Shown: one piece after another, positions 20,910-32,249 of the stretch
How positions within the stretch are numbered: the first letter of the stretch is position 1
Layout of the letters: each line of letters starts with the position of its first letter
Source: a virus
Lineage: Duplodnaviria > Caudoviricetes
Reading direction: 5' to 3' (one strand)
DNA length: 64,000 bases
IMG/VR virus record: IMGVR_UViG_3300042888_002988
Span: 136,159 to 200,158 of that record
The notes under the pieces: generated by a model
Databases searched by the model: none
The model's input: only the letters and a program-made list of their open reading frames with translations
What the model was told of the DNA's origin: nothing
Translations under genes and position numbers: made by a program

Positions 20910-21341
20910 GGGGGCGTTCTGGTTTCGACATGATTGTTGAAGGCATTACCCGCACGTGGTGGTTGATCGGCAGGCCACCTTAAAAGCCGTTCAAAACAAA
21001 CAAATGCCAACTCCAACGAGTTCGCGATGACCTCCGCCGAAGCAGACGCTTTGCTCGCCAATGGTATCGCCGCCCCAACGGGCGTCGAAGCCGGCGCGCT
21101 CGCAGCTGCCTAAGCAGACTGTCATCCCACGTGGGTTCCGCCGGTATACCGGGGCCTGCGCAGGACAACCAATGTATTCCTTAGAGCCAGGTAACACTGG
21201 CGGGCAGCCCGGGAAGACGGGATAGGTCTCAAGCCCCGAATGGTGCGATAGGGTGTCTCGGCCCGATAACTGAGACTAAACGTGTAGAAAGTATGCTTGA
21301 CGTAATTGTGGACAGGGGTTCGACTCCCCTCGCCTCCACCA
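20910..21341 (+). ncRNA. ssrA: tmRNA with a 35-codon tag reading frame (21006-21113)
   Basis: 5' GGGGGCGTTCTGGTTTCGAC; 3' T-arm GGGGTTCGACTCCCC plus CGCCTCC-A-CCA; G3-U70 pair; tag ANSNEFA...ALAAA with stop in a hairpin loop. Confidence 0.95.
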
Positions 21342-21349
21342 TTTCCCAC

Positions 21350-21428
21350 GGCAGGGTAGCTCAGTCTGGTCCAGAGCAACGGGCTCATAATCCGTAGGTC
21401 GGTGGTTCGAATCCACCCCCTGCCACCA
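21350..21428 (+). tRNA. tRNA with CAT anticodon (elongator Met or Ile2; not initiator)
   Basis: Full cloverleaf: GGCAGGG/CCCTGCC acceptor stem, loop CTCATAA, encoded CCA, G1-C72 pair. Confidence 0.92.
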
Positions 21429-21720: not shown

Positions 21721-21800
21721 TCGCAGGTAGCTCAGACTGGTAGAGCATCGGTGCCAACACTTACCGAGGGTCGTAGGTTCAAATCCTACCCTGTGATCCA
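21721..21800 (+). tRNA. Non-canonical tRNA with a 10-nt anticodon loop (GCCAACACTT); no decodable anticodon
   Basis: TCGCAGG/CCTGTGA acceptor, TAGCTCAGACTGGTAGAGC D-arm, GTAGG-TTCAAAT-CCTAC T-arm and CCA are intact; TCGGT/ACCGA stem; no U33. Confidence 0.75.
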
Positions 21801-22310: not shown

Positions 22311-22657
22311 TGAACCAACCGTTTATTACCGCACAAAACATCAGCAGCAGTGGAGCCAGACCGTCAACGATCTGGGCCTCTGCGGCCAAGACGCTCAGAA
22401 GTTTGCAAACTGCCGATCTGCAGCAGCACCACGTTCGCTCGTGGGATGCCTACCCCAGCAACCGCTGGGGCTGGGTAGCCGACAGCGGACGACTGCTTGG
22501 TGTCGGTCACTGCGCCAAGTCGCAGGGCCGGCAGGGAGAACGCATCGCCCGGATCGACCTGCCCTACTACGGTAGCGGCCGGGAATTGAGGGAGGACGTG
22601 CGCAAGTATCTCGCCAAGATCGACAGAAAATTCCGCGTGGTCCGCAAAGCAGCGTGA
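22310..22657 (+). CDS. Hypothetical protein
   Basis: ORF directly after promoter site 2. Confidence 0.6.
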   Translation: MNQPFITAQNISSSGARPSTIWASAAKTLRSLQTADLQQHHVRSWDAYPSNRWGWVADSGRLLGVGHCAKSQGRQGERIARIDLPYYGSGRELREDVRKYLAKIDRKFRVVRKAA

Positions 22658-22714
22658 CGCGCCTTCCCCGCGCTGCAAGTTAATCCCCCGCTCATACATC
22701 AAGATTAGCAGCGC

Positions 22715-22757
22715 ACCGCGCGGCTTCCTTCGGGGAGCCGCGCGGTCCATCTTCTTT
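22715..22757 (+). terminator. Intrinsic terminator-like hairpin
   Basis: 14-bp stem with cUUCGg loop followed by a pyrimidine/T tract. Confidence 0.7.
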
Positions 22758-22774
22758 ACCTAACACATAATACA

Positions 22775-22978
22775 ATGAAAGTATACGAACTAATCAGACT
22801 ACTGGAAGAAGCACCCGCCGGATTGGAAGTTCAAGTTGTCCTACCCAACACGCTGGCTACACACATCAAGAAGGTCGAAAGTGACGAGGAGGCCTTTTAC
22901 ATCATAGGCCTAGATGCCGAAATCGTGAGCGACGCGAATGGCGAGAGTTTAGGAATGCTTTCAGCGCTCCAGTTCTGA
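22775..22978 (+). CDS. Small hypothetical protein
   Basis: A-rich leader and ATG; convergent with the terminase C-half. Confidence 0.55.
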   Translation: MKVYELIRLLEEAPAGLEVQVVLPNTLATHIKKVESDEEAFYIIGLDAEIVSDANGESLGMLSALQF

Positions 22979-24871
22979 TCACCCGCCCACGTAGCCGCCA
23001 TCGAACATGTCGCCCATCCGGGTGCCAAGGTCGTTGGGGATCGCGATGCCAAACATGGTCCGCAGCTCGTCCATGATCTGCTTGTTCGGGATCAGCGGCT
23101 CCTGGTTCACGATGCGCTTCATCATGCAGGCGTAGTTGGTGGCCATCAGGAAGTCATCCGCCCGAGCCCCGTGCTTGATGTAGCGCATGATCGTCCGGCC
23201 CGAGGGCGCCTCGGTGATGTTCCGGCGGACGTTCAAGCAGTCCAGAGCAAACGAGCTGGAGTCATCCCACCGCGGCCAGGTGATCATCCCGTCCTTGATG
23301 TCGGCCAGCACGGCTGAGATCGAGTCCGACCGGTGAAGCGACATGATGTTCGACTCCGGGTGTGGAATGCGATCGAGCATCAGCTTGGTGTCGGTGTATT
23401 GGAAGTGGATCAGCATGTTTGTGGGGATCGCGCCGCAGTCCCGCATGAAGGCATTGTAGTAAGCGCCTCCGCCGTTGTCGGTGCCCATGGCGAACGACTT
23501 GAACCGGTTGTGGGCGGCCACGATGGTCTGAGCGACATCGCGGTAATTCATCCCAGCGTAGCGGTGAGCGTAGAGCAGGTCCATCCGACCCTCAGGAGTC
23601 ATCCCGTAGATCACGTGCACCGTGTAGGAGAGCTTCGACCGGTAGGCCGGCTCCCAGTCAGAACCTCCCCAGTCGACGCCGGAGAACACCCTGGTGTAGC
23701 GCACGGTCTCCTCGAAGTAATCCGACTGGGTCTTCTTGAAGGTCTTGTCGGTGCAGCACTTCTTCAGATCCGCCTCGCTGAGCTCGGTCATCCCGGACTC
23801 CACCGCGATTCCCCAGATTTCCTGGAGGAACTTTTTGAACTGACCATTCTGGGTATACCGTTGGTAATACTGCCAGATGTCCATGAAGCGCTTGCCCTGC
23901 GCATACTCCGGCACGATCACCTGCGGAAGGTGGAAGCTCGGCATGTTGACGTTGAGCCTTGATCGATCCTCGTGGACGAACTCGCCGGCCATCGGGTTGA
24001 GCTTGATATGCTTGTTGTCCGGGCAGCGCAGGCCTTCCGGTGAGACCATCATGTTCGGAATGATTTCCGGATCCCCCAGGGAGTGGAACTTCTTCGGGCA
24101 GGAACAGGGGATGTGCCATACGCCACGGCTGCCTAGCCGATACTGTGCTTCGAGGCAGGTATCGAGGTCCTTGGAGGTGCCGGCGAAGATGGTGAGCCGG
24201 TCGTCGGGGAAGGCTTTCTGGACCTGCTCGATCTCAGGTAAATGCTCGGCATCGAAATCCTGCGCTTCGTCTATCAGGACTGATGGAACCGAGTTGCCCC
24301 GAATTTTACTGGGGTCAGTTAGAATGTGCATTAACTTCAGAGAACCGCCGGACGGTGCCTCTTTGTAATACATGTTATTGCGGTAGCCGCGGCTCGCAAA
24401 GTAGGACGGAGGACATACTGATCCGCGCTGCATGTCGAGCATTTTATCAGCGATCGTCTTGCTCTGCTCCTTGAGCGGAGTCAGGTAAATCGCGCGGTAG
24501 TTCGGGAACACGCAGAACTTGAGAAGCTCCGCTCCGCACAGCCCAGTCGAATTATGACTGGCGATCCCGGACGTGAAATACGTGTGCTCTTTGGAATCCA
24601 CCCGCAGATCGAACAGCTCGCGCAGTTCCCCCAGGGGCTCGCAGCTGGTGACCATCTGCCAATCGTGCTCAGTCAATACCCAGTCACCCACCAGGATCTG
24701 ATCCACCTGCGTGAAGCCACTCGTCCCGTTCACCAAATGCTTGCCGGCGCACTCCAGCGTGAATTCACGCGTCTGGAGTCGCCATACCGGCATGGGAATA
24801 GTGCGATAGGCATGTGTGACTTTTACAAAACCACCCCCAGGAGCGGCGACTTTTATGTCAAGATGCTCCAA
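22979..24871 (-). CDS. terL: Terminase large subunit C-terminal part, preceded by a C-terminal split-intein fragment
   Basis: After HN|S: YLTPL, IRGNSVPSVLIDEAQD (Walker B), FAGTSK, Cys-rich region, GVDWGG and GTDNGGG nuclease acids. TTG start at 24871 has GAGGA 7 nt upstream; the ORF is open to GTG 24955. Confidence 0.88.
   Translation of the reverse strand: MEHLDIKVAAPGGGFVKVTHAYRTIPMPVWRLQTREFTLECAGKHLVNGTSGFTQVDQILVGDWVLTEHDWQMVTSCEPLGELRELFDLRVDSKEHTYFTSGIASHNSTGLCGAELLKFCVFPNYRAIYLTPLKEQSKTIADKMLDMQRGSVCPPSYFASRGYRNNMYYKEAPSGGSLKLMHILTDPSKIRGNSVPSVLIDEAQDFDAEHLPEIEQVQKAFPDDRLTIFAGTSKDLDTCLEAQYRLGSRGVWHIPCSCPKKFHSLGDPEIIPNMMVSPEGLRCPDNKHIKLNPMAGEFVHEDRSRLNVNMPSFHLPQVIVPEYAQGKRFMDIWQYYQRYTQNGQFKKFLQEIWGIAVESGMTELSEADLKKCCTDKTFKKTQSDYFEETVRYTRVFSGVDWGGSDWEPAYRSKLSYTVHVIYGMTPEGRMDLLYAHRYAGMNYRDVAQTIVAAHNRFKSFAMGTDNGGGAYYNAFMRDCGAIPTNMLIHFQYTDTKLMLDRIPHPESNIMSLHRSDSISAVLADIKDGMITWPRWDDSSSFALDCLNVRRNITEAPSGRTIMRYIKHGARADDFLMATNYACMMKRIVNQEPLIPNKQIMDELRTMFGIAIPNDLGTRMGDMFDGGYVGG
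24551..24871 (-). mobile_element. IntC: long C-terminal split-intein fragment (107 aa from TTG)
   Basis: Block B ECAGKH, block F LFDLRV..EHTYF and block G SHN|S; no endonuclease domain. Confidence 0.9.
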
Positions 24872-24954
24872 GGATCGTTCCTCAGCTATTTCGTTTTCCA
24901 GCAGCACGGAGTCCACCGTAAGCCGCGAACGGAGCAGCGTCAAGATGATGACCA

Positions 24955-24987
24955 CGCAAGCAGATGCGGCGTGGTGTCACTTATAAA
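24955..24987 (+). promoter_or_regulatory. Putative promoter, site 4, driving the gene inserted between the terminase halves
   Basis: CGCAAG followed by GGTGTCA at the same 20-nt GCAA-to-GTCA spacing as sites 1-3; the downstream hexamer differs (CTTATAAA). Confidence 0.5.
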
Positions 24988-25146
24988 GCGCAGGAAGAAC
25001 GGCTCGCGCTGGAGCGACCGTGCGCACCAATCCCCATTACGGACGAAGGGGGCGCCGCATGTTTCCATAGGCTTGCAGCCTACTCATGCCGTGTTATTGT
25101 CGTCCTCAGCCACACATTGAACGCTACCCAACCACTACCCACACAC

Positions 25147-26031
25147 ATGCAATGGGCTCCTCGCCCAGCTCCCTACCTGCCCGGGCTTCACAGCGCCCAG
25201 GCGACGAACAGCAACGAGCGGATACCGTTCGTCTCTGTGTATCGCACCAAAGCCAAGGCCGCAGCGGATTGGATCCGTGGCTGCAAGCTTGCCACCGGCA
25301 CATCCTCGTTCTTCCTGCGCAGCGACGAGCAGGACGTGAAGCTCTACGATTACCGCGGCAGGTTCGTGAAGAACCTGGAGGCACCCACGTTCAAGGCCAC
25401 GCCGGAGCTCGAAGACAGCATCCCAGTGGATCGCGATTTCATGGTGCATGAGGCGCGGGAGGCCACCAAGCAGCCTCAGCTGTCGCTGCTCGTCTGCGCG
25501 GAAGACCACGCCGGCGCCAGCGCTGCCGACCATTCGAACTTCGTCATTGTCTGCAGGCGCATGCTCATCGAGGCCTCCGCCGCGGACCTGGAGCATTTCT
25601 ATGTAGTGGAGAGCCAGCGCTGGCCGTGCCGCATGACGGGCATCTACGCAAACGTCTCCGCGCTGTCGCCGGCCATGCAGGACATCTACCTGGAGCGATT
25701 CAAGTGGCTCAGCAACAGCTGGCCGCTGAATGCCCGGCACCACCTGGACATGCTGGCCGACCGGCTGGTGCGATCCAGGTCGCGCTACGTGACCGACCTA
25801 CTGCAGGACTGCGGACACGCCGCCCGTATGCCGCAGGACCTGATTCTGACCCTGCAGTCGAAGTGGATGCTGGCGTCGCCGGGATCCAAGTATCGGTTCG
25901 CGCAGCACTTGGTGGAGACGCTCCGGGAAGGTCTGCTGTTCGAAATCAACCAGGCTGAGGTGTTCGCGCCGTCCATCGTGGACAGCCACGGGGCGGCGGT
26001 CGTCAAGGAATTCAGGCAAATCCTGCGCTGA
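25147..26031 (+). CDS. Hypothetical protein inserted antisense between the terminase/intein halves
   Basis: ATG 25147 follows an A/C-rich leader typical of this genome; no HNH, GIY-YIG or LAGLIDADG motif seen. Confidence 0.7.
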   Translation: MQWAPRPAPYLPGLHSAQATNSNERIPFVSVYRTKAKAAADWIRGCKLATGTSSFFLRSDEQDVKLYDYRGRFVKNLEAPTFKATPELEDSIPVDRDFMVHEAREATKQPQLSLLVCAEDHAGASAADHSNFVIVCRRMLIEASAADLEHFYVVESQRWPCRMTGIYANVSALSPAMQDIYLERFKWLSNSWPLNARHHLDMLADRLVRSRSRYVTDLLQDCGHAARMPQDLILTLQSKWMLASPGSKYRFAQHLVETLREGLLFEINQAEVFAPSIVDSHGAAVVKEFRQILR

Positions 26032-26443
26032 CCGGCAGTCCCTGATCGAAAATTGCGCGCAGAGTCACACGTCCGTGATTGGTCTCCACGGGCGTGTCGC
26101 CGTCGGCGCACTTGCCCACCTGCCGGCCCGCTTTCAGGGTGATCACACTGCCCGGGGTCATGGCTGTCATGGCGAACATGAAGGGGCGGGAGCTGAAATC
26201 CAGTGGTGTGTCGAACGGATACCTGGGGAAGAACCTGGGGATCAGCAGACCGAAGTTGAAACCGCACAGCGGCAGCAAAGCACCCTCGGCATCCATGATG
26301 TCCTGGCGAGTGGCCTTGCCATTTGAGTAGTCCGCTGATACTGTGTCGATGCGCTTCATGGCGGCGGTGACCAACGCCGCCTGCTGGGGGTCCTTCCTCA
26401 GCTCGCTGATGAGGTCATAAACAAATTTACCTTGTGCCGCCAT
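26012..26443 (-). CDS. terL: Terminase large subunit N-terminal part (111 aa, ending in Walker A GRQVGK) plus short N-intein
   Basis: SRPFM...ITLKAGRQVGK followed directly by intein block A CADGDT. Confidence 0.88.
   Translation of the reverse strand: MAAQGKFVYDLISELRKDPQQAALVTAAMKRIDTVSADYSNGKATRQDIMDAEGALLPLCGFNFGLLIPRFFPRYPFDTPLDFSSRPFMFAMTAMTPGSVITLKAGRQVGKCADGDTPVETNHGRVTLRAIFDQGLPVSAGFA
26015..26110 (-). mobile_element. IntN: 32-aa N-terminal split-intein fragment
   Basis: CADGDTPVETNHGRVTLRAIFDQGLPVSAGFA then a TGA stop. Confidence 0.9.
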
Positions 26444-26565
26444 GCCTGAATCTAAATCTACTGTGTTGCTGGAGAATGAGCGAGCTGACCGCTTCGGCTC
26501 GGCCCGCGCAGGAGCTTACTTGATCTGGACACGCGAGCAAGGGGAGAAACTACGAGAAATTCAAG

Positions 26566-27210
26566 ATGAGCAATCCCAACCAGAACCCGAATCCCCAACC
26601 GCCCAAGAAATCCGCCAAAAATTCAACTCCTGAAACACCGGAGACGCCGCCCGATCCCGCGTTGCTCGCCATGGCCGCTTTGCAGCAGGCTATGGAGGTC
26701 ATCCAGGACTCGCGCAAAGTCATCCAGGACGCCAGCGAGCTGAACGACCGAATGCTGGAGCGTGAGAAACCGCTCATTGATTTCCACGAGGCCATCGAAG
26801 GCACCACCGAGAACGACATGCGTATCTGGTGGGACGTCCGCGTCATCCGCGGGCGCAACACGCCTTTCACCCAGAGCACCGGCACTTCCTACCTGCCGGG
26901 CTTGCTGAGCGACAAGCTCAGGCAGCACGCCATCGCGACGATCCAGCAGGAGATCAACGACAAGATCGCGGCCCCCATCGGCTCGGCCTTCATGGAGGAA
27001 ACCGAGCGCGTGACCATCGCCAACACGAGCCGTATCGCCAACCGTCCGCTCGTGGACCACGAAGACGGCGCTTCGCTGTTGCCGGCCCCGGACGCCGACG
27101 GAGGCTCCTCGAAGCTGCTGAGCATGGCTCGGGAGCACGAGGAGGAGACCGCCAAGAATGCGGACGTTTACGTTCCGGAAGACGACGAGGAGGAGGATGA
27201 CCATGCGTGA
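26566..27210 (+). CDS. Hypothetical protein
   Basis: Clean ORF with acidic tail. Confidence 0.6.
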   Translation: MSNPNQNPNPQPPKKSAKNSTPETPETPPDPALLAMAALQQAMEVIQDSRKVIQDASELNDRMLEREKPLIDFHEAIEGTTENDMRIWWDVRVIRGRNTPFTQSTGTSYLPGLLSDKLRQHAIATIQQEINDKIAAPIGSAFMEETERVTIANTSRIANRPLVDHEDGASLLPAPDADGGSSKLLSMAREHEEETAKNADVYVPEDDEEEDDHA

Positions 27211-27985
27211 TCCTAACCAGGACGCATGGAACAAACACGAATGGCGAAAAGAAACAACTTGGTGGGACTTGCTGGAAGTCGACACCGAGCTGGTAGGTAA
27301 AAATTACGCCGACGTGTTTGAGTGGCTGGAGGAGGTCGCCCCCGATCCCTACGAGCATGACTACATCCTCTACACGGACGGCTCCGGCTGCACCGAAGGC
27401 TGGGGAGGATACGCCGCTGTCTGGGAAAGGATTGACCTCCTGGGTCAATTCCGGGCGCCGATATCCACGGGGTTGCTGGTATCCAGCACGTATGGCTCCA
27501 CCGTCCAGCGGTGCGAGTTCAATGCCTTGCTGGACGGCGTGCACGCCATCCTCACTGAACGTGGGCGCGAGCTGCAGGAGCAGGCCAAGTTGGTCAAGGA
27601 TGACGAGCTGCTCTACCGATTAGGGACGCAGGGAATCCTAAACCAGTTCACAGGGCCCGACCGGATATCGATACTTTGGTATACCGACCGTGCCAACCTC
27701 GCACAATCGATGCTGCACGACGAGGCGGGTGATCCGCTGTTCTCACGCGGCAAAGAACGTGACCTGTGGCTTCGCTGGTCGTTCATGGCCAAACACGTCT
27801 GCCTCACACCCATGTGCCGTCCGCGGAACGTGGTGGCCGGGCAGGCGCTCTGCGACAACCTAGCCGGGCAAGCGCGTGCGCTGCTCAAAGGAGCTCAAGA
27901 ATCAATGGCCGCGGCTACCTCCGCGGCCCAACTATATCCAATCGAATCATGGCAAACCAAGCAACCCCAGACAGCGATCTTCTGA
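27203..27985 (+). CDS. rnh: Ribonuclease H-like protein
   Basis: Motifs LYTDGSG, VQRCEFNALLDG, WYTD and CDNLA. Confidence 0.85.
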   Translation: MRDPNQDAWNKHEWRKETTWWDLLEVDTELVGKNYADVFEWLEEVAPDPYEHDYILYTDGSGCTEGWGGYAAVWERIDLLGQFRAPISTGLLVSSTYGSTVQRCEFNALLDGVHAILTERGRELQEQAKLVKDDELLYRLGTQGILNQFTGPDRISILWYTDRANLAQSMLHDEAGDPLFSRGKERDLWLRWSFMAKHVCLTPMCRPRNVVAGQALCDNLAGQARALLKGAQESMAAATSAAQLYPIESWQTKQPQTAIF

Positions 27986-29154
27986 TCGCCCACATCGGTG
28001 ACACGCACTTGCGCGACACTCAATATGCCACCAGCCGGCGAGGGCTGGACTTCTTCGAGGGCTTTGCGCACGCGGTTCAAATCGCGTGCCGCTACGCCGA
28101 CATCGTGGTCATCACCGGAGACATCTTCGACCGGCCGCGGCCGAGCCCGAAGGTCATCGGACAGCTCATGCAGATCGATCAGATCCTGCAGCGGGCCGGC
28201 AAGGTGGCGCTCGCCATCACCGGCAACCACGACTGGAGCGATCCGACCTGGCTGCAGACCCTATTCCCCGGGCGCAGTCCTCGGGAGGGCGGCACCGGTC
28301 CTTGCTTCCTGGCAGACGACGCGTCCGGTATCATCCCCATCGACGACGCCGAGCTGACCTTCCGCGGTTACAAGTTCGCGGGGCTGGTCCCTCACTCGGC
28401 CGGCACGTTCAGGGCTTCCCTGGCCGACATCACCGTGCGGGTGCGGGAGGCGGACGTGGTGCTGTTTCACGGGCTGGTCGACGGCGTGGTGAAGTTCCCC
28501 ATCCACTTCGCCGATCCGCTGCACGTGCGCGAATTCCCCATCTCCAGGAACAACAAGGCCTGGTTGCTGGGTGACGTTCACTTGCAGGGGTTCGTCAGCG
28601 TTGATCGTCCCGGCGGCGGGCAGTGCCTCGTCGGCTACCCGGGGTCCACGGAGATGTGCTCCGCGGCCGAGCCGGTGGAGAAGGCGGTGCCGATCATCCG
28701 CCTGACCAAGGACGGCGCCTCGGTGGAGCGCACAGCTTCCTTCCCGATCCGCCCGTTCATCAAGGCGGAGGTGCGGGACGAGGAGCAGCTCGAAGCGCTC
28801 ATGAGGCGTATCGAGCCGGTCGCCGATCAGCACCCGGTCGTGGTCGTGCAGTTCAAGCGTGATCTGCCTCAAACGATCAATCGCCTGCACTCCATGCTGG
28901 ATGCGCAGCGCGCAGTCATTCGGTGCTACCCGCTGCCGGAGACCAAGACCTACACGGAGCGGGAAGTCAGCGACGAAGACGATCAGCACCTCGGTATGGA
29001 GCATTTCGTCAGTCGCCGGTTTGACGGCCGCGAGGACTTGCAGAAGTTCGCGCTGGATCTGCTGGTGCGCGGTGAGAGTGATGCTAACAACCTCATCGCC
29101 ACGCTGATCGAAACCCGCCTGGCTGCTACAGGTATACGCGAAGATGAGGAGTAA
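27949..29154 (+). CDS. SbcD/Mre11/gp47-like nuclease
   Basis: Motifs GDTHL, GDIFD, GNHD, FHG, LGDVH and YPGS. Confidence 0.92.
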   Translation: MANQATPDSDLLIAHIGDTHLRDTQYATSRRGLDFFEGFAHAVQIACRYADIVVITGDIFDRPRPSPKVIGQLMQIDQILQRAGKVALAITGNHDWSDPTWLQTLFPGRSPREGGTGPCFLADDASGIIPIDDAELTFRGYKFAGLVPHSAGTFRASLADITVRVREADVVLFHGLVDGVVKFPIHFADPLHVREFPISRNNKAWLLGDVHLQGFVSVDRPGGGQCLVGYPGSTEMCSAAEPVEKAVPIIRLTKDGASVERTASFPIRPFIKAEVRDEEQLEALMRRIEPVADQHPVVVVQFKRDLPQTINRLHSMLDAQRAVIRCYPLPETKTYTEREVSDEDDQHLGMEHFVSRRFDGREDLQKFALDLLVRGESDANNLIATLIETRLAATGIREDEE

Positions 29155-29159
29155 TACGG

Positions 29160-29708
29160 ATGCCCAAGCCCAGTGCCAAGCTGCTCGCAGAAGGATTCTT
29201 CGACTTCAAAAAGCACTCCCCTGATGGGAGGTGCTGGGTCAAAGGATGCCAGCGCGCGTCTCAGCATGACCTGTCGTTGTGCCATATGCATGAGATGCGT
29301 CGCTGGCGTGCCAGCAAGAAGAAGACTGCGGATTACTGCACGTTGCGCGACCATGCGCAGGCGAGGGGCATCAAGTTCGAAATCACGCTGGATTACTGGC
29401 GTGGACTGGTGGACGCATTCGGGTTTTACAACAAGGAGAATGACGACCTGGTGCTCTCGATCGACCGCGTGGATCCCACGCGCGGCTACGTCGAGGGCAA
29501 CATGCGCGTCATTACGACAGACCTGAACGTCTACAAATCGCACCGGGAGCGATACCTGCCGGAGCACGTGCAGCACATGCTTGAACGCAAGCGTGATCAG
29601 CTGCGCGCGGAGCAGGCCAAGTATTTGGCGCTGGACGCCCCCAACGAAGAGTATTGGGAAGAACCGGACGAGAGCCCGGAAGTAAACGACGATAACTGCC
29701 CGTTTTAG
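29160..29708 (+). CDS. His-Me finger (HNH-type) endonuclease
   Basis: SIDRVDPTRGYVEGNMRVITTDLN, plus an N-terminal Cys/His motif. Confidence 0.75.
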   Translation: MPKPSAKLLAEGFFDFKKHSPDGRCWVKGCQRASQHDLSLCHMHEMRRWRASKKKTADYCTLRDHAQARGIKFEITLDYWRGLVDAFGFYNKENDDLVLSIDRVDPTRGYVEGNMRVITTDLNVYKSHRERYLPEHVQHMLERKRDQLRAEQAKYLALDAPNEEYWEEPDESPEVNDDNCPF

Positions 29709-29729
29709 GGCCGCAAACCACACATCACC

Positions 29730-32249
29730 ATGATAGAAATCAAATCAATCGAAATCATCGATTTCGGCCGCCACAAGAAGATCAAGTCCAAGCTGAAGGG
29801 TCACAGCATCGGCTTGGCCGGCCCCAACGGGCGCGGCAAGTCCACCGTTCTGCAGGCCGTCCAGTTCGCCCTTACCGGCACCATCGATCATCCGGATCCG
29901 CTGAAAGCATTCATCCGGCGGTCGAGCGGCGACAACCCGCCGGCCGCTGCGGAGGTCACACTGGAGTTCGTCGCCGACGGCAAGCCAGGCAAGATCCAGC
30001 GCCGCATCACCCGGACGACCGTCACGCGCAAGCTGTGGTGGGACGGGAACGAGAAGCCCATCACATCCGAAGGGCAAGTCAGCGACATCCTGTTCAACAT
30101 CCTGGGTGTGGACAAGAAGGCCATCAACTCGACGGTGTTCATCCGCCAGGGTGAGATGGCCAGCATGTTTGGCGGCGACGTCGATCGCCGGGACTTCTAC
30201 ACGCGGCTGCTGATGCTGGGTCACCTGGCCAAGATCGCCACGACGTTAGAGAACTTCCGCGCGACGACGGCGGCCAGCGTACAGGATCTCGGCGCGGTGC
30301 GTGACGCCGCCCAGTCCACCTACGAAGGCGCCCGTATCTACTTCGAGCAGTGTGAGCGCGAGCTGGAGGACACGCCTACGGTCGCTGAGTCGCTCACCAA
30401 AGCACGCCGCGTGGTCGCTGCGTATGCTGATTACTCCGAGGCGTCCGAGGCGCTGAAGCGTGCGCTGGCTAAGCTGGAGAAATACATCTTCGGCGACACC
30501 GAGGTCACGGCGTGGCTGGATCACCAGCGCCTGCAGGTGCACAGCTGGAAAGCGGAAGCCGATAAATTGCAGAAGCGTCGAGGTCAGCACCAGGAAGTGT
30601 CCAAGGCGCTGGCTGAATCGACGCTGCGGTTCCAGAACCTGAAGGCCCTCGCGGAGAAATTCGAAGCTCTGCGTAAGGCCGAGGCGGACCTCGCCGCGCT
30701 GGGTGACATCGGAGTGGATCCCGAGCCGGGCATCAAGCGGAACGAAGGCTACATCACCAAGCTCGATCGAAAGGCGGCTCTGGAAGTCAGCGCCCCCGTC
30801 GTCAAGCAGGCAGCAGCCGACGCTCAGGCGAAGCTGGATCTCGTGGCGGAGTCGCTGGCCGCCATCCAAGAGGTCTACGATGCCAACCGCGAGGTCTACG
30901 TGCTGGCCCGCGGGGCGGTGAACATGCGCAAGGATCTTCTCAAAGGCCTGGAGTCCGGCGTTCCTTGCGCGGAAAGCTGCCCGCTCTGCGGCGGCGAAGC
31001 GCCACCGAATCCTGAGCACTTGAAGAAGGAGATCGCGGAATACGAGCAGCGCATGGCTGCTGCCGAGCTGAAGGGGCATGAGACAGCCGCGCGCTTGAAC
31101 GAGCGCAAGTCTGAGCACGCCGCAGCGAAGCGGGTGTTTGATGCCGCCGCCGACAAGCTGACCGAGGAGACGCAGGAGTATAAGCGGCTCGAGATCGAGA
31201 TGCGCCTGACCTCCCGTGAGACTGTGGAAACCATCCTCCGGGATCTCCGCGAGAAGGTGCCGACCTACCACGCGAAAGCATTCGAGTTCACTCGCCTGAC
31301 CGGTGAGATCACCCGCCGCAAGCACGCAGTGGGCCTCAACACGCCGCCGACGCAGAATGACATCGACGCCGAGCAGGACCTAGTGACCCGGCTGCAGAGC
31401 GATTTGCAGGAGTGCCCCTGGGAGACCACAGACGTCGCGGCGCTGGAGAATGCCGTTGCGTCTCACAGGAAATCTCAAGACGCCGTGGAAGCAGTGCAGG
31501 GCATCGTAGCGGACATCGAGGCGGCCGAGCGTCGCGACGAAAGTAGCGCCTCACACCTGCAAAACGAGATCGTTGCCGCAGGTCCGACCTTCTGGAAGCG
31601 CGAAGACGGAGCCGTCGTGACGCCGGAGATGGCGCAGGCGAAGCTCACGGAGCTAGAGCAGACCCAGACCAAGCACGACGAGACCCGGGGCCGGCGCGTG
31701 GCCGCCAACGAAGCGTTGAAAGCAGCGAGCCGCAAAATCGATGAGCTCGACCTGCGCACCGCAGAGCAGAAGCAACGGCTGAAGTTGGTCAAGGATCTGG
31801 AGGAGCTGCGCGACACGTTCAAGCCGAGCGGCGCCAGTCTCGACTACCTGGACTACAAGTTCGGTCGCATCGCCAGGCTGGCCGCGGATTACCTGTCCGA
31901 GAGCGGAGCCGACTTCATGGTCGCCGCCAGCAACGATGTTGCGCTGTCGTTCGACTTCCTGCGGACCGACCGCGCCGACGAGGTGTGGATGCCTCAGAAC
32001 CGCATGTCGGGCGGACAGAAAGTCCGTCTGGCTGTGGCAACCCTGCGGGCGATCCACGCCATGATTATGCCCAACGTGGGGCTGCTCGTCCTCGATGAGC
32101 CTACCACCCACCTGGACGAGGAAGCCAAGCGCAGCATGGCCGACATGCTGCAGAAGATTGGCGACGAGGGAACGCTGCAAATGATCGTCTGCGACCACTC
32201 GCCGACGCTAATTGATGCGTTCAGTGACCGTATCGAGATACCCGAATGA
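29730..32249 (+). CDS. SbcC/Rad50/gp46-like ATPase
   Basis: GPNGRGKS, coiled coil with CPLC hook, MSGGQ signature and LVLDEPTTHLD. Confidence 0.93.
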   Translation: MIEIKSIEIIDFGRHKKIKSKLKGHSIGLAGPNGRGKSTVLQAVQFALTGTIDHPDPLKAFIRRSSGDNPPAAAEVTLEFVADGKPGKIQRRITRTTVTRKLWWDGNEKPITSEGQVSDILFNILGVDKKAINSTVFIRQGEMASMFGGDVDRRDFYTRLLMLGHLAKIATTLENFRATTAASVQDLGAVRDAAQSTYEGARIYFEQCERELEDTPTVAESLTKARRVVAAYADYSEASEALKRALAKLEKYIFGDTEVTAWLDHQRLQVHSWKAEADKLQKRRGQHQEVSKALAESTLRFQNLKALAEKFEALRKAEADLAALGDIGVDPEPGIKRNEGYITKLDRKAALEVSAPVVKQAAADAQAKLDLVAESLAAIQEVYDANREVYVLARGAVNMRKDLLKGLESGVPCAESCPLCGGEAPPNPEHLKKEIAEYEQRMAAAELKGHETAARLNERKSEHAAAKRVFDAAADKLTEETQEYKRLEIEMRLTSRETVETILRDLREKVPTYHAKAFEFTRLTGEITRRKHAVGLNTPPTQNDIDAEQDLVTRLQSDLQECPWETTDVAALENAVASHRKSQDAVEAVQGIVADIEAAERRDESSASHLQNEIVAAGPTFWKREDGAVVTPEMAQAKLTELEQTQTKHDETRGRRVAANEALKAASRKIDELDLRTAEQKQRLKLVKDLEELRDTFKPSGASLDYLDYKFGRIARLAADYLSESGADFMVAASNDVALSFDFLRTDRADEVWMPQNRMSGGQKVRLAVATLRAIHAMIMPNVGLLVLDEPTTHLDEEAKRSMADMLQKIGDEGTLQMIVCDHSPTLIDAFSDRIEIPE

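Follow-up and report, generated by a model that had tools for sequence, protein, structure and literature searches.

A jumbo-phage large terminase written as two genes and very probably joined by a lopsided split intein at Walker A

The window described here is a 64,000-nucleotide stretch of DNA that forms the final 64 kb of a 200,158 bp phage record (IMG/VR record IMGVR_UViG_3300042888_002988, Caudoviricetes), and the subject of this analysis is its gene for the large terminase subunit (TerL), which lies on the minus strand in two pieces. The record, a metagenome assembly of class linear with a CheckV completeness of 100%, belongs to a freshwater jumbo phage in which TerL is the sole DNA-packaging motor gene and is written as two genes. 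Gene 1 (26012–26443, minus strand) encodes 143 amino acids (aa), namely 111 aa of TerL followed by a 32-aa N-terminal intein piece (IntN). The TerL part, or N-extein (26111–26443, minus strand), ends in the Walker A motif GRQVGK and is delimited by the translation, by the mapping of an uninterrupted relative and by alignment to intein-less terminases. IntN (26012–26110, minus strand) begins directly after the Walker A lysine and consists of 32 codons from Cys1 (26015–26110) and a stop codon (26012–26014). Gene 2 (22979–24907, minus strand) encodes the rest of the intein (IntC; 24551–24907, minus strand), which runs for 119 codons from a GTG to the terminal asparagine, and the TerL C-extein (22979–24550, minus strand), which comprises 523 aa and the stop codon and starts with the Walker A serine at position +1. 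An earlier sequence-only reading of this DNA had described a terminase broken into two genes by a split intein at Walker A, the first gene ending in GRQVGK and a 32-aa IntN. Both genes are found at the coordinates which that reading had given, the translation yields the Cys-initiated tail followed by a stop, and the exteins can be aligned throughout with intact terminases.

Joined, the two exteins amount to 111 + 523 = 634 aa and align over their full length, at 32–34% identity, to five uninterrupted metagenome terminases of 609–634 aa. One 634-aa uninterrupted relative (P0081) maps to the phage genome as two pieces only, its residues 49–113 falling in gene 1 and residues 111–613 in gene 2. 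The gene 2 protein matches phrog_2 (terminase large subunit) at 2.8e-10 and has tblastn matches to annotated terminases of cultured phages, which together with the P0081 mapping define the C-extein; its Walker B motif (LIDEA) is intact and the nuclease half is present. No further terminase was detected in this genome by terminase searches of limited sensitivity, and a six-frame genome search with phrog_2, itself of limited sensitivity, returned no match although the gene 2 protein matches that family.

The position of the break is equally well defined. In alignments to intact terminases it falls at RQxxK/S or RQxxK/T (here and below a slash marks the insertion point), and in the window it falls at GRQVGK/S, between the lysine and the serine of Walker A. 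The joined exteins also align with TerL of Salmonella phage Arash, in which KAGRQIGK-SVSLGG corresponds to KAGRQVGK/STGLCG of the window. The junction thus matches intact terminases at RQxxK/S, in line with the earlier expectation that joining would restore GRQVGKST. Lysine followed by serine or threonine in Walker A is the ‘classic’ P-loop intein site, documented for the TerL1-a intein of mycobacteriophages (Kelley 2016, PMC5050341).

The intein halves are recognizable on several grounds. IntC is delimited by an alignment of 42 relatives, by synonymous variation in its leader codons, by profile matches to the Protein Data Bank (PDB) and Pfam, and by its invariant residues; it comprises a conserved 16-aa leader, the block B His, the block F Asp and the block G His-Asn pair. 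A profile built from the 42 IntC regions matches the PDB entries of VidaL (1.1e-17), gp41-1 (2.6e-11), CatC (6DSL, 7.4e-9) and Spl DnaX (4.4e-8), and 35 of the 42 family members match Pfam Intein_splicing (PF14890), the best at 1.8e-8, so that the proposed kinship with known inteins is borne out. Comparison of 64 full-length C genes, whose IntC regions share 22–88% identity, reveals that the block B His, the block F Asp, the penultimate His, the terminal Asn and Ser+1 are invariant in all 64. The N-terminal half is no less regular: every one of 105 homologous N-gene clusters has GRQVGK followed by Cys1, a total tail of 25–47 residues (modal length 27) and a stop. IntN alone found no match in the PDB with phmmer because the query is too short. 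The intein displays the class 1 features Cys1, block F Asp, block G His-Asn and Ser at +1, and the placement of Cys1 and Ser+1 in the P-loop, claimed before from the window only, holds for all 105 N-gene clusters and all 64 C genes.

One element of the earlier description has to be revised. The sequence-only reading had IntC begin at a TTG (24871) with GAGGA, giving 107 aa. The open frame of gene 2 extends further, over 22979–24955, with GIASHN/STGLCG at its residues 135/136, and relatives share a leader with the consensus MLLxxEIAEERSVEHL upstream of that TTG. The leader codons vary synonymously between loci, which indicates that the leader is selected as protein; the homologous C genes start with ATG in two loci (L003 and L007) and with GTG in the window and in L002. 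Gene 2 therefore most likely starts at the GTG at 24907, which makes IntC 119 aa long and includes 12 intervening residues conserved through synonymous changes. The GTG is not preceded by a good Shine-Dalgarno sequence.

Structure prediction was applied to residues 95–143 of gene 1 together with residues 17–165 of gene 2 in three runs. The predicted IntN–IntC complex received an interface score (ipSAE) of 0.70 in all three, against 0.01 for the best control; 51 of 78 solved complexes attain that mark, as do 2 of 108 mismatched pairs. The runs agree in at least 71% of their contacts, and the partner predicted local distance difference test (pLDDT) score was at least 65. In the model, IntN residues 119–122 pair with IntC residues 34–37, while the IntN segment 128–136 packs on the IntC leader and residues 46–52; the leader is in contact with the helix of IntN. 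Since solved split-intein complexes exist, the score attests likeness and is no proof of binding for this pair, and its passing the mark may in part reflect likeness to those solved structures.

What lies between the two halves? A gap of about 1.1 kb intervenes between the gene 1 stop codon and the gene 2 start. The spacing and the common strand of the halves had been described correctly in the sequence-only reading, but a conserved antisense gene in the gap had been overlooked. This gene (25147–26031, plus strand) encodes 294 aa from an ATG at 25147, a GTG about 50 nucleotides (nt) upstream being also possible as a start, and shares 20 nt with the 3′ end of gene 1. The gene is found at the same position in loci L002, L003, L007, L011 and L015 and in IMG/VR loci. 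Its 36 homologues, at 41–96% identity, share an invariant DH...D.SN...R motif; His, Asp, Asn, Arg and Cys positions are invariant, as is the stretch E-D-H-x-G-x-S-A-A-D-x-S-N.

The AlphaFold model of the antisense protein is confident (pLDDT 92, predicted template modelling score 0.88). Searches of Pfam, PHROGs and NCBIfam gave no family match. Foldseek searches of the PDB, AFDB clusters and BFVD returned nothing at E ≤ 0.001; the ESM Atlas shape search reached a template modelling score of 0.32 at most, and the Atlas feature search gave no usable match. In a wide search with VIA-align the whole protein reached a best Z of 6.0, confined to a helical segment, and the central domain one of 4.2; searched separately, that domain likewise had no convincing counterpart. 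Comparison by hhalign with the gap and neighbour genes of L008, L009, L010 and L066 revealed no relation, the Vsr-like gap frame of L066 included. Such negative results do not amount to a new fold. No recognizable free-standing homing endonuclease gene was found between the halves in the window: the gap gene is antisense, and these searches detected no nuclease in it.

The antisense orientation of the gap gene means that the terminase halves cannot share a simple mRNA and would need separate promoters. Gene 2 and the antisense gene diverge from an intergenic region (24908–25146) which contains TTGACG at 24938–24943 on the minus strand, and the same hexamer stands at −36/−35 from the C-gene start codon in three diverged phages (the window, L002 and L003). 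Its conservation suggests a promoter of the C gene with a very short leader, the transcript of which would be a near-leaderless or leaderless mRNA. The upstream regions of the two halves have no long motif in common.

How could an active motor arise from such an arrangement? We propose that TerL is encoded as two polypeptides which are, with high probability, joined by protein trans-splicing of a lopsided split intein. The two genes would be transcribed from separate promoters. The first polypeptide would carry TerL residues 1–111, up to the Walker A lysine, and the 32-residue IntN (strands β1–β2 and helix α1); this short IntN would dock onto IntC, completing the Hedgehog/intein (HINT) fold. 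A class 1 reaction would then proceed through an N–S acyl shift at Cys1, attack by Ser+1, cyclization of the terminal Asn and an O–N shift, so that the exteins would be joined, the P-loop GRQVGKST restored and an active 634-aa terminase produced. The anatomy of the locus, the junction and the conserved catalytic residues support the suggestion, made earlier from the window, that packaging would need protein trans-splicing.

Several considerations weigh against this proposal. Splicing is deduced from conservation, and that each half has its own transcript is deduced only from how the genes are oriented and from the conserved TTGACG; a sigma-70 consensus scan of 22700–26900 found sites no more often than in shuffled sequence. 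The IntC of the window itself scores 13.7 bits against Pfam Intein_splicing, below the gathering cut-off of 35.8. Block B is without the usual Thr of TxxH, the position being occupied by Cys in 56, Gly in 4 and Ala in 4 of the 64 C genes. Finally, the parallel divergence of intein and extein (Spearman 0.87, n = 63), which speaks for the proposal and fits vertical inheritance, is a statistic uncorrected for shared ancestry.

The departure from the block B consensus is also in keeping with a different role, in which the halves associate through their intein pieces without splicing and form a non-covalent two-chain enzyme, or the intein serves as a mere dimerization module; the predicted complex, too, displays docking only and not chemistry. 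Such an enzyme would, however, retain about 150 residues inside its P-loop, between the lysine and the serine which jointly bind ATP. Moreover, Cys1, the block F Asp, the penultimate His, the terminal Asn and Ser+1 are invariant across 64–105 clusters, down to about 22–33% identity, and the invariance of residues required for chemistry only is more than a docking role demands. We therefore regard association without splicing as improbable.

More improbable still is a decaying or defective terminase, that is, a pseudogene in a phage packaged by another enzyme or not viable at all. The linear class of the metagenome assembly and the limited sensitivity of the terminase searches leave some room for it, yet both halves and the intein are clearly under purifying selection in more than 60 C-gene and more than 100 N-gene clusters, near-identical DNA is found in lake and other freshwater metagenomes of several studies and years, and in a record of 100% CheckV completeness no other terminase match was detected.

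Joining of the halves at the RNA level, by an intron, by trans-splicing or by recoding, deserves a hearing because both introns and coding gaps have precedents in phage terminase genes. The earlier reading had named it as an outcome that would overturn the intein, and it was not borne out: no Rfam family is found in 22500–27000 at E up to 1, neither DNA nor RNA contigs display a joined form of the terminase, a conserved protein gene of the opposite strand occupies the gap, and on either side of it stands a complete and conserved intein half, the first with a stop and the second with a start of its own. Short contigs of a marine metatranscriptome (X18) are 90–99% alike over parts of both halves; they stem from relatives, may represent DNA carry-over, and show neither transcription nor a joined form. 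We consider joining at the RNA level very unlikely. An assembly artefact, with a spurious 1.1-kb insert or a wrong succession of pieces, is hardly credible even for a metagenome assembly and in spite of the earlier caution on this point, given that an independent 2728-bp contig from a different study (X3) covers 23443–26170 with zero differences, another (X5) spans 25485–26600, and the same gene order recurs in at least seven other independent contigs.

How does the trans-splicing terminase proposed here relate to known systems? Its closest counterparts by host protein are AceL-TerL, GOS-TerL and the consensus Cat (PDB 6DSL), which are atypically split phage TerL inteins (Dassa 2009, PMC2677866), described by Thiel 2014 and Bachmann & Mootz 2015 (cited after PMC11766414 and PMC13014065). 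IntN and IntC measure 37 and 115 aa in GOS-TerL (Ser1/Cys+1), 25 and 104 aa in AceL-TerL (Cys1/Cys+1) and 30 and 104 aa in Cat (Cys1/Cys+1; PMC11766414), while at the GOS locus, which is gp17-like (T4 gp17), the C part has been given as 122 residues (Dassa 2009, PMC2677866). The window shares with these inteins the TerL host, a short IntN (25–37 aa there, 32 aa in the window and 25–47 in its clade) and a long IntC (104–122 aa there, 119 here), with Cys1 and the class 1 motifs in common. AceL-TerL and GOS-TerL are broken after helix α1 (type S2), VidaL and PolB16 after β2 (type S1), the IntN of VidaL being 16 aa long (PMC13014065). CatC aligns to our IntC profile from position 13 onward, so both IntC fragments start at the same structural place, and by this alignment the window intein is of the S2 type, with a break after α1 as in AceL and GOS.

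The differences are no less instructive. The +1 residue is the Walker A Ser in the window and Cys in AceL, GOS and Cat; insertion at Walker A requires Ser or Thr at +1, which places those inteins elsewhere, and their insertion site thus probably differs from the one described here, lending indirect support to the earlier statement that AceL-TerL sits at a different terminase site. The window TerL belongs to a different, jumbo-phage family, and its gap is occupied by the antisense gene instead of a same-strand endonuclease gene. By sequence its IntC is nearer to VidaL than to Cat. Indeed VidaL (PDB 6vgv), likewise naturally and atypically split with a short IntN, is the best match among solved structures, although it is split after β2 and the window intein after α1. 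The insertion point itself is shared with the inteins of mycobacteriophage TerL1-a and of Kuttervirus ECML-4 TerL. The latter, a contiguous mini-intein at the same GK/T site, is detectably homologous to the window intein (tblastn 5e-7 across intein and extein); both are single-chain and splice in cis, whereas the intein of the window is distributed over two genes. What the earlier reading had presented as a new natural atypical split intein is, then, a new member of a known TerL class, at another site (Walker A, with Ser+1) and in another TerL family.

The layout also recalls the fractured genes of Dassa 2009 (PMC2677866), in which split intein halves are separated by a free-standing homing endonuclease gene. 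As in those cases, there are two phage open reading frames with their own stop and start and a gene lodged in the break; unlike them, the lodged gene of the window clade lies on the opposite strand and has no detectable nuclease domain or known fold. The textbook form exists within the same TerL family: at locus L018 (35% identity) TerL is split in the same manner and at the identical site, with a same-strand 387-aa gene in the gap that has a DUF559/Vsr-like nuclease domain, and more distant P-loop split inteins of IMG/VR have similar same-strand nuclease genes. The order of N gene, antisense gene and C gene recurs in independent contigs with TerL identities of 71%, 49% and 41% and in IMG/VR. 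At L008:1728-7893 (34% identity) a distance of 3.8 kb separates the halves and accommodates eight antisense genes, one of them PAPS reductase-like. At L004 (33% identity, GC content 33%) no N gene was found within 5 kb upstream of the C gene. The break looks like a place in which genes tend to settle.

A scan of IMG/VR with the IntC profile returned 328 related stretches, 80 of which are covered by the detailed counts. The open frame upstream of the IntC match is shorter than 100 codons in 68 of the 80, too short for an N-extein and IntN, so these 68 are split; in at least 27 of the 80 there is an upstream same-strand gene ending in GK/C, 25–50 residues and a stop, the gaps measuring 83 nt to 2 kb. 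Same-family short-N split inteins are also present in other P-loop proteins (IMG/VR loci L031, L059, L064, L067 and L076; GxxGxGK/C...stop), where the smallest gaps are 125–200 nt, and the intein type is therefore not confined to terminases. Characterized natural split inteins of the short-N type number only about four, namely AceL-TerL, GOS-TerL, VidaL and PolB16 (PMC13014065). Short-N/long-C forms are accordingly rare, as the sequence-only reading had it, among characterized examples but not in nature, with 105 N-gene clusters here and hundreds of related P-loop split inteins in IMG/VR.

Many relatives have a second intein at Walker B (...VHN/CQDFD), which the window is without, its LIDEAQDFD being intact. 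This second intein is contiguous and long in P0024, P0032, P0065 and P0068, and canonically split, with an IntC of about 40 aa and hence a three-piece terminase, in P0066, P0070, P0072, P0074, P0076 and P0079; L018:6989-10399 also carries it.

The terminase locus is adjoined by genes for Mre11-like (Metallophos) and Rad50-like (SMC_N) proteins (27766–32249, plus strand), transcribed away from it. In intein-less relatives the terminase gene likewise diverges from a leftward Mre11–Rad50 operon, a synteny which the split clade has retained. Immediately downstream of the terminase genes follow a transfer-messenger RNA gene (20910–21341, 127 bits), a tRNA-Met (21350–21428) and another tRNA, the anticodon loop of which is odd (21721–21800).

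As regards history, we hypothesize that a contiguous P-loop mini-intein, similar to that of Kuttervirus, was likely broken by a gene inserted into the linker that follows α1, and that vertical descent then likely carried the split arrangement through a large group of freshwater jumbo phages. L018 has kept a Vsr-like homing endonuclease gene at that place. The arrangement is real, ancient and common to more than 100 uncultured relatives. In the clade of the window, the homing endonuclease gene expected in the gap is replaced by the antisense gene. It is tempting, if doubtful, to regard that gene as more than a passenger: it might encode a new intein-associated homing or maintenance factor with an undescribed fold, or else convergent transcription over the 3′ end of the N gene, combined with separate promoters, might turn trans-splicing into a timing switch, in which case active terminase would appear only late in infection.

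What sets this terminase apart is the Walker A site with Ser+1, an arrangement that has become fixed throughout a large clade of phages, and the antisense gene lodged between the halves. Inteins with a short N-terminal piece are valued for protein semisynthesis, since a piece of that size is accessible by peptide synthesis; the present family adds a Cys1/Ser+1 type with a core IntN of 25 residues, and its natural variants, over 100 of IntN and over 60 of IntC, constitute raw material for a Cat-like consensus design. For the phages themselves, the arrangement would mean that the essential packaging motor of a freshwater jumbo phage clade has depended on protein trans-splicing through a long divergence, down to about 33% TerL identity.

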